Positions 28,645-63,726 of a stretch of 64,000 nt of DNA are shown in pieces. The translations under genes and the position numbers were made by a program. The notes under the pieces were generated by a model. It did no database searches, was not told the origin of the DNA, and worked only from the letters and a program-made list of their open reading frames with translations. Where the stretch lies: assembly GCA_017458185.1 (NCBI GenBank), contig JAFTFY010000008.1, positions 12,315 through 76,314 on the forward strand, given 5' to 3'. Every line of letters begins with the position of its first letter. Positions within the stretch are counted from its first letter, which is position 1. Source of the stretch: Neisseriaceae bacterium (lineage in GTDB: Bacteria > Pseudomonadota > Gammaproteobacteria > Burkholderiales > Neisseriaceae).

Positions 28645-28735
28645 TGGCGGAAGCGGTGAGATTCGAACTCACGGTGGGCTACTAACCCACGACGGTTTTC
28701 AAGACCGCTGCATTAAACCGCTCTGCCACGCTTCC
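28645..28735 (-). tRNA. tRNA-Ser (anticodon UGA)
   Basis: The reverse complement reads GGAAGCGTGGCAGAGCGGTTTAATGCAGCGGTCTTGAAAACCGTCGTGGGTTAGTAGCCCACCGTGAGTTCGAATCTCACCGCTTCCGCCA. The anticodon loop is CTTGAAA, the variable arm is long and the T-arm is GTTCGAATC. Confidence 0.92.
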
Positions 28736-42870: not shown

Positions 42871-43000
42871 TTCTTTTCCTTTTTCTTATTTCAGGCAGTC
42901 TGAAAAATAAAATCCATTCTCCTTGCATGCGGAGATTGCCACGCCTTGCCTTTGGCAAGGCTCGCAATGACAGTAATTTTTTCAGGCTGCCTGAAAACAA

Positions 43001-56099: not shown

Positions 56100-56105
56100 A
56101 AAGAC

Positions 56106-56318
56106 ATTCCCTGCGGTGTTCGATTTCAGCATATACTCCTTTGAACCAATACATTCGCTTTTGGGGGTGAAAGTTTGATGGGCGTGCGCGTTCCGTGTGA
56201 ATGTACCCGAAATCAGACGGCACTTACCGACCTTACCACAAGGTTCAAGCGATTTTCGCTGTAACGGCACTCGCGGGGTATTTAATATTTAAAGACGGCT
56301 GTGCCGTCTTTTTGTTTT
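56106..56318 (+). ncRNA. candidate structured sRNA of about 210 nt (possibly 6S-like; identity unverified)
   Basis: The promoter sits just upstream. Long-range pairings CCCUGCGG/CUCGCGGG, UCAGC/GCUGA, UUGAACC/GGUUCAA and UACAUUC/GAAUGUA give a rod with a large internal loop. The terminator gacggc-tgt-gccgtc plus a T-run lies at 56293-56318. No credible ORF is present. Confidence 0.5.
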
Positions 56319-59631: not shown

Positions 59632-62031
59632 ATGACGGAAATTCCAAACAACCATAACGAACAACTTTCATTAGGCGAATACGCCCAGCAGGCTTATTTG
59701 GCTTATGCGATGAGCGTGGTGCGTTCTCGGGCTTTGCCTGATGTGGCGGACGGTCAAAAGCCTGTGCAGCGGCGGATTTTGTATGCCATGCACGATATGC
59801 GTTTGAATGCGGGGGCGAAGCCTGTGAAATCTGCCCGTGTGGTGGGCGAGATTTTGGGGAAATATCACCCGCATGGGGACGCGTCTGCGTATGACGCTAT
59901 GGTGCGTATGGCACAGGATTTTACCCTGCGTTATCCTTTGATTGACGGTATCGGCAACTTTGGTTCGCGAGACGGCGATGGGGCGGCGGCAATGCGTTAT
60001 ACCGAAGCACGGCTCACACCGATTGCGTCTTTGTTGCTGTCGGAATTAGAACAAGGCACGGTGGATTTTATTCCTAATTATGACGGTGCGTTTGATGAGC
60101 CGTCTGTTTTGCCTGCTCGCTTGCCGTTTGTTTTATTGAATGGGGCAAGCGGTATTGCGGTGGGCTTGGCAACTGAAATTCCGCCACATAATTTGCGTGA
60201 AGTGGCAGCGGCTTCTGTGGCTTTATTGCGTAATCCAAATTTGCAAACCGCTGAAATACTGCAATATTTACCTGCACCTGATTTTCCAGGTGGCGGTCAG
60301 ATTATTTCTTCGCCTGATGAAATTGTGAAAATTTACGAAACAGGCAAAGGCTCAATTCGTGTGCGGGCAAGGTATGAAGTGGAAAAACTGGCACGCGGTC
60401 AGTGGCGGATTGTGGTATCCGAGTTACCGCCTGCTGTGTCGGCACAAAAAATCTTGGCACAAATTGAAGAGATGACCAACCCCAAACCGAAAGCGGGCAA
60501 AAAACAGTTAAGCCAAGAACAACAAAACACCAAGTCGCTTATGCTGTCGTTAATTGACAAGGTGCGTGATGATTCGGACAACGAATCGCCTGTGCGGTTA
60601 GTATTTGAACCTAAATCATCTCGTCTTGACCCTGATGAATTTATCAACACGCTAATGGCGAACACCGATTTAGAATGTAATTCGCCTGTAAATTTGGTGA
60701 TGATGGGGCAAAACGGCAAACCTGCCCAAAAAGGTTTGAAACAAATTTTGACAGAATGGTTGGCGTTTCGTGTGGCAACCGTTACACGCCGCTTGCAATT
60801 TCGTTTGAGTGAAGTACAAAAACGCATTCATATTTTGCAAGGCAGAATGACGGTTTTTTTGCATATTGATGAAGTCATCAAAGTTATTCGTGAATCGGAC
60901 GAACCCAAGCCAGAGTTAATGCGTGCCTTTGGTCTCACGGAAATTCAAGCCGAAGATATTTTAGAAATTCGTCTGCGGCAATTAGCACGATTAGAATGGA
61001 TTAAATTAGAAAGCGAATTAGCCAAATTACAAGAAGAAGAAGGCAACCTGAAACACTTATTAAGCGATGAAACAGCGAAAAAACGCTTAATTATCAAAGA
61101 AATACAAGACGATGCTAAACAATATGGCGATGACCGCCGCACGCTCGTAGAAGCCGCCGAACGCGCCGTATCCGTGCAAACGGTTGCGGACGAGCCGATT
61201 ACCATTATTCTGTCGCAAAAAGGCTGGGTTCGCACACGACAAGGGCATAATTTGGATTTATCGCAAATCACATTCAAAGACGGCGATGATTTGCGGCAAA
61301 CGGTTGAAAGCCGCACGGTTGCGGAAATTGTGCTGTTAGATAACTTGGGGCGTTCTTACACCGTTGCCGCCGCCGACATTCCAGGCGGACGCGGGGACGG
61401 CGTGCCGATTTCGTCTCTCATCGACTTACAAGCAGGTGCCCAAATCATCACCCTAATATCAGGGCTGCCTGAAAACCGATATTTGCTTGCAAATACAGGC
61501 GGTTACGGATTTATTTGTGCATTAGGCGATATGCTTTCCAAAGTCAAAGCAGGCAAAGTGCTGATGACTCTCAATGACAATGAAAAAATGCTGGTGCCGT
61601 GTGCCGTGCCCAACAGTTTCAGGCTGCCTGAAAATAATGATACCGTCATTGCGAGTGAGCCGCAAAGCGGCGAGCGTGGCAATCTCCTTATGTCGGAGCG
61701 TGTTCCCAATCTTTCAGGCAGCCTGAAAGTCTTGCTTGCCACAAGTGAGCCGAGAATACTTGCCTTTGACTTAACCGAATTACGGCAAATGAGTAAAGGT
61801 CGCGGCTTGCAATTAGTCAATCTGCCCGATAAAGAAACGCTCACCCACATTATTTTAACGGATAAAGAAGAATACACAGTCGAAAGCACAGGGCGGCGTG
61901 GTGCGGTGCATACCGACACCCTGCGTTTGTCCGATGTGCTGAATAAAAGAGCCAAAAAAGGCAAACCCATACACCTTTCAGGCAGCCTGAAAGCATTAAA
62001 TGTGGAACAAAAATGGGCAGAAATGCCGTAA
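59632..62031 (+). CDS. parC: DNA topoisomerase IV subunit A
   Basis: [32 protein letters not shown] (ParC-type PVQRRI) and the active-site region [10 protein letters not shown] are present. At 799 aa the protein is longer than usual because of an internal repeat module. Confidence 0.95.
61618..61727 (+). repeat. in-frame intragenic repeat module inside parC (DUS - CATTGCGAG/CGTGGCAATC hairpin - DUS)
   Basis: ttcaggctgcctgaa ... gtcattgcgagtgagccgcaaagcggcgagcgtggcaatctcc ... ttcaggcagcctgaa translates as [37 protein letters not shown]. Confidence 0.8.
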
Positions 62032-62109
62032 GATTTGATAAAAGCAAAAGTTTCAGGCAGCCTGAAAGCATATAATAAGCACTTTGAAAAGGCATTAGGA
62101 ATAATCTTT

Positions 62110-63726
62110 ATGTCTATATTTCGACAAGAAAGTTTTTCGGACGCCCTGTTTATCGAACGCGTCAAACGCAATGTGGAGTATCTGCCAAATTTAGTGGCAG
62201 TGATGCGGATTGCGATTGCGGTTGCGGTTTTGGTGTTTTATTTGTTGCAAAACAATAACAACACAGGCTCGGTGCATTTTGAACGCTTGCCCTTGTTTGC
62301 GTGGGAGAGTGTTTATACATTTTTTATTTTGGTTACGCTGTTTTTGCCACAAGTAAAAGCCGCTAAATTCAAAGGCATTTATCCGCTTGCCATTAACTTG
62401 ATGGACATTTTTATGATTGTCCTTTTAACCCATTTGGCAGGCGGTGTGGAAACAGGTTTTGGCATTTTTGTTCTGCCATTTATTGCCACAGCGTCTTTTA
62501 CCACAGGCGGACGCAATGCTTTGGCTTATGCGTCTTTTGCAACCATTTTGTTGTTTTTAACCAGTATCAGCCATTTTTGGCTTGCCGATGAGATGCAATC
62601 TGCTGTACAACAAGATATTATTGTGGCAGCGTTTTTGTCTTTGGCGTGCTTTTTTGTGGCACTGATGAGTGCGTACGGTTCGGTGAATATTCGCCGTGCA
62701 TTAAACACCATTTCGCGTAATGAAGAGCAAATTGCACAGTTGAGCAACCTGAACAAATTGGTGTTAGAACACGCCCAAGAAGGTTTAGTGGTACTCAATC
62801 ACACAGGTAAAGTGGTGTTGTTTAATAATCAAGCCAAAAACTATATGCCTGATTTATTTTTAGATCACACGCTTTCCGATTTCGACAGCATATTGGGGAT
62901 ATGGCAAGGGCATATTTATCAATCGTTTGATGAAATTTGCCATTGTTCGGGCAAGGAAATGCAAATTCACGCCGTGCCTTTAACCGAACAAGAACCGCCG
63001 TTATTGCTTTTGTCTATGCGTTCCTCCGAAGAAATTGACCGTGCCAGTCGCACCGACAAATTAGCGTCATTGGGGCAATTAACGGCAAATTTAGCCCACG
63101 AAATTCGCAATCCATTGGCAGCCATTAGCCAAGCCAATGAATTGATGTTAGAAAGTATGGCAACGGACGAAGATTCGCCTTACACTACTTTGGCGAATAT
63201 GATTGGTCATAATGTTAAACGCATTAACCGTATGGTGCAGGAAATTCAAGCCGTCAATCGTAGCGACCGTTTAGACAGAACCTATATTCAAGTCAGAAAA
63301 TATATGGAAGAATATTTGGCGGAATTTATCATATCGCACCCTGACGCACAAGGTTGTTTGGATATTCGCACCGAATGCGATGAGAGCGTGTATATTTATA
63401 TGGACGATGGGCATTTGCACCAGATTTTGGACAATCTGTTAAATAATGCGTGGAAATATTGCGATAAAGGCGAATATGCCATTCAGGTTGCCACACGATT
63501 AAAAAGCGAAACCCGTGAATTGGTGATTTCCATTGCCGACAATGGTCCTGGGATACCCAAAGAAAACGAGCAACGCATTTTTGAACCCTTTTTTACCACT
63601 TCAAGTGAAGGCACGGGTTTGGGTTTATATGTTGCCCAATCGCTTGCCATGGCGAATAATGCGGTGTTACGCTATCGTGGCACTTTGCGTAAATTTGAAT
63701 TGATTGTGAAAGCGGAATTAAGATGA
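62110..63726 (+). CDS. pilS: sensor histidine kinase, PilS-like (multi-TM N-terminus, PAS, HisKA, HATPase)
   Basis: The start is the ATG at 62110. Six TM segments are followed by LAHEIRNPL (H-box), DNLLNNAWKY (N-box), DNGPGIP and GTGLGL. The stop overlaps the start of the response-regulator gene (ATGA). Confidence 0.75.
   Translation: MSIFRQESFSDALFIERVKRNVEYLPNLVAVMRIAIAVAVLVFYLLQNNNNTGSVHFERLPLFAWESVYTFFILVTLFLPQVKAAKFKGIYPLAINLMDIFMIVLLTHLAGGVETGFGIFVLPFIATASFTTGGRNALAYASFATILLFLTSISHFWLADEMQSAVQQDIIVAAFLSLACFFVALMSAYGSVNIRRALNTISRNEEQIAQLSNLNKLVLEHAQEGLVVLNHTGKVVLFNNQAKNYMPDLFLDHTLSDFDSILGIWQGHIYQSFDEICHCSGKEMQIHAVPLTEQEPPLLLLSMRSSEEIDRASRTDKLASLGQLTANLAHEIRNPLAAISQANELMLESMATDEDSPYTTLANMIGHNVKRINRMVQEIQAVNRSDRLDRTYIQVRKYMEEYLAEFIISHPDAQGCLDIRTECDESVYIYMDDGHLHQILDNLLNNAWKYCDKGEYAIQVATRLKSETRELVISIADNGPGIPKENEQRIFEPFFTTSSEGTGLGLYVAQSLAMANNAVLRYRGTLRKFELIVKAELR

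Follow-up and report, generated by a model that had tools for sequence, protein, structure and literature searches.

A palindromic repeat unit bounded by DNA uptake sequences lies in frame within parC of a Neisseriaceae bacterium and is probably allied to the targets of SsnA-type nucleases

The parC gene of a Neisseriaceae bacterium raises the question of how repeat DNA of an intergenic kind can lie inside the reading frame of a gene that the cell should not be able to do without, and of what sort of repeat it is. The gene occupies 59632..62031 on the plus strand of a 64,000-nucleotide stretch of contig JAFTFY010000008.1, which we call the window; the 2.13 Mb genome to which the window belongs is designated G000, and seven congeners are designated G001 to G007. 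It encodes a topoisomerase IV subunit A of 799 amino acids with a PF00521 catalytic region (topoisomerase IV/gyrase subunit A; Pfam E 4e-137) and a beta-pinwheel C-terminal domain, and its best solved relative is ParC of E. coli (1zvu, E 2e-186). Topoisomerase IV being what it is, parC is presumed to be essential. The sole other gene matched in G000 is GyrA-like, with 45% identity; therefore, there is no second, insert-free parC to cover for this one. Within the gene, 111 nt at 61618..61728, codons 663-699, are derived from repeats and are read on the plus strand as 37 amino acids. We put a probability of about 80% on the following reading. The segment is a canonical unit composed of DNA uptake sequences (DUS) and a repetitive extragenic palindrome (REP), it sits in frame and is tolerated as a passenger loop, and its REP is of the CGTC-tagged kind, with an SsnA-family nuclease as its most likely cognate enzyme.

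The repeat unit and its class

The unit opens with a palindromic DUS of the W=T form, TTCAGGCTGCCTGAA (61618..61632), which is read as FRLPE. A 12-nt spacer on the plus strand (61633..61644) follows, and its last base is the C of a CGTC tag. The REP module itself (61645..61684, plus strand) is made of a 5' flank, GTCATTGCGAG (61645-61655), a 19-nt hairpin insert with a 5-bp GC stem and an AAA loop (61656-61674), and a 3' flank, CGTGGCAATC (61675-61684). Then comes a plus-strand spacer of 28 nt (61685..61712), the length found in what we call the short form of the unit, with a small CTCC/GGAG hairpin predicted by folding at 61684-61698. The unit closes with a palindromic DUS of the W=A form, TTCAGGCAGCCTGAA (61713..61727), read as SGSLK. 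The right DUS is the full complement of the left one, and the two form a 17-bp stem that encloses the module in both the RNA fold (-54.9 kcal/mol, z -4.5) and the DNA fold (-28.9 kcal/mol, z -4.1). The original prediction, made by a model from the letters of the window, had described the two inverted DUS, a third DUS further on (61977..61991), a flank-hairpin-flank module within ParC and an unbroken frame. Palindrome and pattern searches, the folds and the open reading frame 59632-62031, which runs straight through the segment, uphold all of these points. The third DUS, at the 3' end of parC, is read within HLSGSLKAL; it probably arose by point changes rather than by insertion, since the family consensus at that place is already SGxL.

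Both components are abundant in the genome. The DUS palindrome, TTCAGGCWGCCTGAA, occurs 63 times in the window as against none in 100 shuffles, and at about 2,067 loci genome-wide (4,134 matches over both strands). It comprises two over-represented 12-mer dialects, in near-equal numbers (2,477 and 2,191), which are arranged as dyad pairs. We presume that these two spellings are the ones that go by the dialect names simDUS and kingDUS. In Simonsiella muelleri, the dialects of that name likewise differ by A or T, number 2,292 and 2,257 and overlap as 1,294 dyad pairs, and where they are intragenic, they give Q/L and S/C alternatives (PMC3630211). The intragenic readings found here, FRLPE/FRQPE and SGSLK, match that pattern.

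The module pattern, CATTGCGAG-N-CGTGGCAATC, matches the parC copy at 61647-61684 and five more places in the window, and none in shuffles. The copy at 42934 is built like the parC unit, and the window modules sit within mosaic arrays of DUS and hairpins. Genome-wide, 200 modules have exact flanks, and the count rises to 264 if each flank may carry one substitution. These 264 contain 137 distinct hairpin inserts, nearly all of them perfectly paired. A DUS palindrome lies at most 80 nt upstream of the module in 181 cases (about 10% would be expected) and at most 140 nt downstream in 187 (about 17% expected), with preferred distances of 9-13 nt upstream and of 27-28 or ~62-65 nt downstream. Within the short form, the parC copy is of the most frequent build: its upstream distance of 12 nt is the most frequent (30/264), and its downstream distance of 28 nt belongs to the group of 22 modules at 27 or 28 nt. 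Some hairpin inserts read CCGTCTGAAAGACGG, as at C22:~12335 and C39:~67034 of G000 and at C1:4891 of a further module-bearing relative, G015. Together with the flank, this string includes a 10-mer, taken here for the classical uptake sequence of Neisseria, of which the genome has only 17 matches over both strands.

By its sequence, the module belongs to the class of CGTC-tagged REPs that includes dRS3 of Neisseria, with the longer motif NTS, and the Rickettsia palindromic elements RPE-4 and RPE-6. Three features place it there, and all three are described for the class in PMC3733652, where the tag may be CGTC, TGTC or CCTC and the short unpaired tail is mostly CCA. First, the tag is TGTC in 193 and CGTC in 68 of the 264 modules, the parC copy having CGTC. 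Second, the stem starts with A-T, and ATTGC...GCAAT is invariant in the search pattern. Third, the tail is CCA in 140 modules, CTC in 69 and CCC in 27, the parC copy having CTC. The stem of 8-9 bp with a loop of 4-5 nt that is usual in the families CGTC-1 to CGTC-4 was not found; unlike the hairpin of other CGTC REPs and of RPE, the one here is bipartite, with a conserved stem of 5 bp, a GAG/CGTG internal loop and a hypervariable second stem (6-8 bp in 229 of the 264).

[quoted passage not shown] The original prediction had seen the same module at MITE ends elsewhere in the window, which proved to be the mosaic DUS and hairpin arrays just described. Its view of the parC segment as a palindromic repeat inserted in frame stands, the segment being absent from relatives; its alternative of a miniature element does not. 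There is a general likeness to the Correia/NEMIS MITEs of Neisseria, which are also small non-coding repeats with inverted ends and long hairpins found within transcripts. Unlike those MITEs, the unit in parC has neither a target-site duplication nor transposase-type terminal repeats, its inverted 'ends' are the genome's own DUS, and it is a mosaic of independent modules. We rejected MITE identity on the grounds that the ends are DUS, that no target-site duplication is seen against the empty site of G001, and that no second full-length copy exists.

REP insertions that keep the frame of DNA-metabolism genes have precedents in other bacteria. Intragenic REPs have been reported in genes for DNA synthesis and repair, DNA polymerase I included; the CGTC-1 family has been equated with dRS3 of Neisseria, and RPE-6 and RPE-4 with CGTC-1 and CGTC-4 (PMC3733652). 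As in parC, the Rickettsia elements are short palindromes lying in frame in functional genes, they add ~20-40 residues that are thought to fall in linkers or loops, and RPE-4 and RPE-6 are of the CGTC tag class (PMC3733652). The present case differs from them in that the REP is nested between two DUS and in that the host is of the naturally competent type, with a Neisseriaceae-like genome, whereas the Rickettsia host is obligately intracellular. Topoisomerase IV is not among the hosts named in the main text of PMC3733652, and a DUS pair enclosing an intragenic REP module is not described in the available part of PMC3630211. New here are the composite of a REP with uptake sequences and the different states in which a single site of an essential gene occurs, which are taken up below. 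The phenomenon known from Rickettsia RPE is, in this way, extended to a DUS-rich, Neisseriaceae-like gut bacterium.

States of the site and the loop in ParC

We aligned 28 full-length ParC orthologues, two partial ParC being excluded from the count. The segment is present in three of them, those of G000, G006 and G007, which are three species. It is absent in 25, namely those of the congeners G001 and G002 and 23 from other genera and families. The insertion is lineage-specific: within a sub-lineage of the genus, a unit of DUS, 12 nt, CGTC-tagged hairpin module, 28 nt and DUS entered parC in frame. The original prediction had put the protein at 30-40 residues longer than typical, which is close: 37 codons are repeat-derived, and the net gain over ParC without the segment is 28 amino acids. 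The empty site of G001 shows where the difference goes. It has a DUS-like sequence, AGGCAACCTGAA, one mismatch away from a DUS and in the frame of the left DUS. Measured against it, the gain from DUS to DUS is 95 nt and the net gain is 84 nt; therefore, ~11 nt were lost or replaced. In this gene, no outcome that broke the frame could survive.

A rival view is that the segment is ancestral to ParC and was lost elsewhere, or that it is an artefact of assembly. It is true that repeats often break assemblies and that parC is divided between contigs in G003 and G005. Absence from 25 of 28 ParC across the family and the order speaks against an ancestral segment, as does the fact that its sequence is the genome's own repeat. 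As for an artefact, G000, G006 and G007 are three separate assemblies, and contigs from four different studies, none of them flagged as a possible source, cross the insert without a gap. These are X5 record 10 (61311-61992), X6 record 18 (61539-61983), X8 record 26 (61378-61994) and X18 record 3 (61582-61951), the last being an RNA-library contig, which is no proof of transcription. We consider this explanation scarcely credible in either form. Joints that skip the module were also seen and considered as deletion alleles, and were rejected as such; their anchors of at most 21 nt are the DUS itself and derive from other DUS loci.

Across the genus, the site exists in four states. In G001 and G002, there is no insert. 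In G005, the left palindrome is followed by a 28-nt spacer and a near-palindrome, with no module (FRLPENTDDTVVENVLGSLKV); this spacer is measured between 17-nt extended palindromes, and the second near-DUS has one mismatch. In G000, G006 and G007, the module lies on the coding strand. In G003, a module with a different hairpin lies on the opposite strand (..FRLPENDTTPQGDCHDLSATNLAMTDSVSGSLKV..). Read by eye, the spacers beside the left palindrome in the last three states share the stretches ATGATAC and ACGACAC. This fits a history in which the palindrome pair came first, and the module then entered its loop on two separate occasions, in opposite orientations. Whole palindrome-bounded cassettes could also have been swapped at the site, in either direction, because the palindrome is its own complement and a cassette can go in either way round. 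At the copy at window 42934, an empty-site search in four congeners gave no readable insertion boundaries; homology ends at the DUS, and the other flank is found elsewhere or on other contigs. In G005, the two contigs that carry parC, C100 and C92, overlap at residues 560-606; identity to G000 is 99% in the N-terminal part and 91% in the C-terminal part. This split gene could be due to strain mixing in a metagenome-assembled genome (MAG) or could be a mosaic allele.

The place of the insert in the protein was taken from an AlphaFold2 model made from an alignment of 28 C-terminal domains (mean predicted local distance difference test, pLDDT, 82.7). The model superimposes on the C-terminal domain of E. 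coli ParC, 1zvt, with a template modelling (TM) score of 0.88 and a root-mean-square deviation of 2.0. Residues 669-693 have pLDDT <50 and are flanked by strands at 657-659 and 699-704. By our reading of the strand triplets in the model, the insert is a hairpin loop inside a blade, that of the fourth of five repeats, and not a loop between blades. The loop is also the most variable stretch of the family alignment. The insert is predicted to be a disordered surface loop of the beta-pinwheel, and a tolerated surface loop is what had been foreseen, the difference being that it had been looked for between blades. In our reading, the insertion is tolerated because it lengthens a loop that was already variable and is predicted to be disordered, and the encoded peptide is probably a neutral passenger.

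A different possibility is that the 37-residue loop gained a function in the ParC protein, for instance, a new contact to DNA or to a partner. The frame is open in three species and in four metagenome variants, and the loop projects from a domain known in E. coli ParC to bind DNA. Among the metagenome variants, the insert has three nonsynonymous and two synonymous changes, compared with 5 and 25 in the flanks (Fisher p 0.067). This hints at relaxed constraint on the insert peptide, and three nonsynonymous variants out of five speak against a function. So do the unrelated peptides that congeners have in its place, encoded by the reversed module in G003 and by the 28-nt spacer in G005, and the similar peptides that the repeat encodes in unrelated proteins. 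Given the predicted disorder as well, a gained protein function seems very improbable.

An SsnA-like nuclease and the module

Since the class of the module includes the neisserial dRS3/NTS repeats, what has been published about the enzyme that acts on those repeats is of direct bearing. NTS is a longer motif present in about half of the dRS3 copies. SsnA, a GIY-YIG nuclease of 94 amino acids, binds NTS as single-stranded DNA and cuts a few nt upstream; by this action, integration of NTS-bearing transforming DNA is ~5-fold lower, and ssnA is typically flanked on both sides by its own repeats (PMC11893778). The module resembles dRS3/NTS in its GTCATT 5' end, AATCY 3' end, central hairpin and hundreds of copies, and also in the small single-domain GIY-YIG gene that such repeats bracket (PMC11893778). 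It is unlike NTS in that its stem is longer and split.

The gene in question (G000 C33:64623-64910, minus strand) is intact and encodes P0002, a GIY-YIG protein of 96 aa with a single domain (PF01541, E 2e-14). The alignment-invariant residues Y8, Y19, R29 and E66 are kept in P0002, and NCBIfam gives no informative family for it. An exact module lies 28 nt 3' of its stop codon, and upstream are two reversed, mismatched copies, each adjoining a palindrome (L037, 1300-1960). Repeats on both sides of a GIY-YIG ssnA homologue, the arrangement that marks the Ssn-related motif (SRM/NTS), are thus found on C33 of G000, and also, as exact modules, at loci L192, L193 and L195 from other phyla. Homologues ~50% identical to P0002 occur in 25 of the 73 genomes of another genus. 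Canonical NTS accompany 8 of 21 loci with P0002 homologues, six of them in that genus (L057-L061 and L063) and two elsewhere (L040 and L044), with up to 16 canonical NTS in one locus. P0002 stands closer to nucleases that are flanked by modules in other phyla: homologues at 58-60% identity, one set in an MAG of the Oscillospiraceae and one in an MAG of the Rickettsiales, have exact modules on both sides, inverted to each other, whereas the NTS-flanked nucleases are those at ~50%. Stretches with the exact module motif number at least 125 and come from many phyla, the 21-nt flanks being exact and the inner hairpin varying, and three of the five genomes tested among those with the motif have a P0002 homologue. 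The comparison makes it most likely that the module is the cognate repeat of an SsnA-family GIY-YIG single-strand DNA nuclease. We regard as new a class of modules that has a branch of Ssn-like nucleases to itself and that the motif, as published, does not cover. A literature search for the motif strings returned primers and unrelated matches only, and the strings are absent from 12 of the 14 supplement files of PMC11893778. That the module brackets SsnA-family genes in at least three distant lineages and yet escapes the published Ssn motif predicts a new nuclease specificity.

Several results weigh against the reading given at the outset, and they concern both the nuclease and the insertion. 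The published SRM search pattern fits not one of the 264 modules, nor any locus that modules flank, and has one match in the whole genome; on loci with canonical NTS, taken as positive controls, it gave 24, 8 and 5 matches. Among the eight genomes of the genus, the SsnA-like gene was found only in G000, and it was not found in G015, while modules number from 3 to 112 in G015 and in six of the seven congeners, the 112 being those of G015. A GIY-YIG family search was also run in G001, G005, G006, G007 and G015, all of which bear modules, and it returned nothing beyond proteins of UvrC size and one of 314 aa. Four of these genomes, G001, G005, G006 and G015, are fragmented assemblies of 140-320 contigs. 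The fifth, G007, has 40 contigs, is 99% complete and is without the SsnA-like gene; therefore, the module persists there without the nuclease. On the side of the insertion, blastn with the 112-nt unit as query gave no full-length, near-identical donor copy in the genome, the best partial matches being 39 nt at 92%. The alleles of G003 and G005 come from incomplete, fragmented assemblies. The nonsynonymous to synonymous contrast between insert and flanks is not statistically significant. Finally, for a neutral passenger, the insert has changed little: it has one difference, a synonymous one, among the three species, compared with ~7.7 per 111 nt in parC (L001 vs L003).

The low divergence of the insert could reflect constraint at the level of DNA instead of neutrality, and it could equally reflect recombination mosaicism. 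Over its whole length, parC differs at 4.6-7.0% of sites among G000, G006 and G007, and the differences are distributed unevenly, from 0 to 18 per 111-nt bin. Because the divergence along the gene is so uneven, the low value in the insert is not proof of constraint. The bin that follows the insert, 61729-61840 (codons ~700-740), has 18 differences to G007, and the insert bin has one. Judged from this distribution, parC seems to be a mosaic made by recombination, and one boundary seems to fall close to the repeat.

If the nuclease works on the module as SsnA does on NTS, then parC DNA that enters as a single strand would, where this is the coding strand, be cut a few nt to the 5' side of the module. 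The position inferred from PMC11893778 would put this putative SsnA-type cut within the 12-nt spacer at 61633..61644. By the published NTS model, the module would lower the integration of transforming DNA, which is opposite to the more efficient transformation that the original prediction expected of parC fragments carrying it. With a signal for uptake and a putative site of single-strand cutting in the space of 111 nt, this locus would be a compact natural test of the interplay between the two.

Modules in other genes and selection on the unit

From the 264 modules, 14 combinations of module and frame fall in open frames reaching at least 60 aa to one side and at least 40 aa to the other, and in five genes confirmed by Pfam (1.9% of 264), the module is in frame. 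ParC is one of the five. A second is PolA (G000 C4:4976-7870; L033), in which a degenerate module and several DUS lie in the linker that joins the 5'-3' exonuclease domain to the 3'-5' one. A third is an Eco57I/MmeI-type restriction-modification enzyme of 1,592 aa (G000 C35:115300-120075; L034), which reads the module in the same frame as ParC, VIASEQSERGNL...NLSGSLKV. The other two are a TonB-dependent receptor, with the module before the plug domain, and a phage tape-measure protein, with the module near the C-terminus. G000, G005 and G006 have the PolA insert; G007, G003, G004, G001, G002 and six other genera are without it. This distribution differs from that of the parC insert; therefore, the two have different histories. 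A presumed-essential parC tolerates 37 codons of selfish-looking repeat DNA, and PolA does likewise. In-frame insertions like the one in parC should not be annotated as frameshifts or pseudogenes. The PolA matches in G003 C102 and G004 C106 (L203 and L204) have one in-frame TAA each. Near its C-terminus, the Eco57I/MmeI-type enzyme has tandem units of ~37 aa, each beginning with a DUS (FSGSLKENTVIAS...), and this array ends in the module.

The company of parC and polA leads to the question of whether the unit has been kept by selection at the DNA level, with the DUS raising the uptake of parC fragments and a nuclease-target module setting the cut point and so shaping genetic exchange. DUS are enriched in genome-maintenance genes (PMC11893778), which, with the 5-fold effect of NTS and SsnA on integration, would suit such a role, as would the module in PolA. 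Among the metagenome variants, none of the 51 nt in the DUS cores and module flanks is changed, compared with 5 of 60 in the remaining insert, and one variant that alters the tag turns CGTC into TGTC, which is also an allowed tag. The insert's divergence below that of parC overall, and the possible recombination boundary marked by the 18 differences in the next bin, could be counted on the same side. Against this, the 0/51 to 5/60 contrast is weak, congeners exist without the unit or with the module reversed, and G006 and G007 keep the module, although the SsnA-like gene was not found in them. Furthermore, DUS dialects of the simDUS/kingDUS type had not yet been functionally verified according to PMC3630211. 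The frequency of intragenic copies is also instructive. At ~2% (5/264), it is like the 2% reported for NTS inside genes of N. meningitidis, where such copies are rare (PMC11893778), and it is what could be expected from random survival at permissive sites. We therefore think it unlikely that DNA-level selection keeps the unit in place, and we retain the passenger loop as the preferred reading. A more elaborate proposal can be made, in which the loops of DUS-pair hairpins are landing pads for a new class of Ssn-associated repeats, one with 21-nt flanks kept exact across phyla and a hypervariable inner stem that the published motif misses, the parC loop having been hit twice, in opposite orientations, in sister species, and in which the composite of uptake and cut signals controls the replacement of the ParC and PolA genes by transformation. 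We offer this last scheme as speculation that is improbable as a whole.

A few other features of the window may be recorded. At gathering thresholds, Rfam finds a tRNA (28648-28735) and a 6S RNA (56105-56283, 58 bits) and nothing else in the window, with no match at the parC insert. Termination inside parC was considered and rejected, since a scan of 61400-62200 gave two weak matches against 1.1 expected, one of which is the right DUS palindrome of the insert. Directly past the parC stop codon is one more DUS (62052..62066), which was found as a palindrome match and coincides with a terminator-like match on the minus strand.

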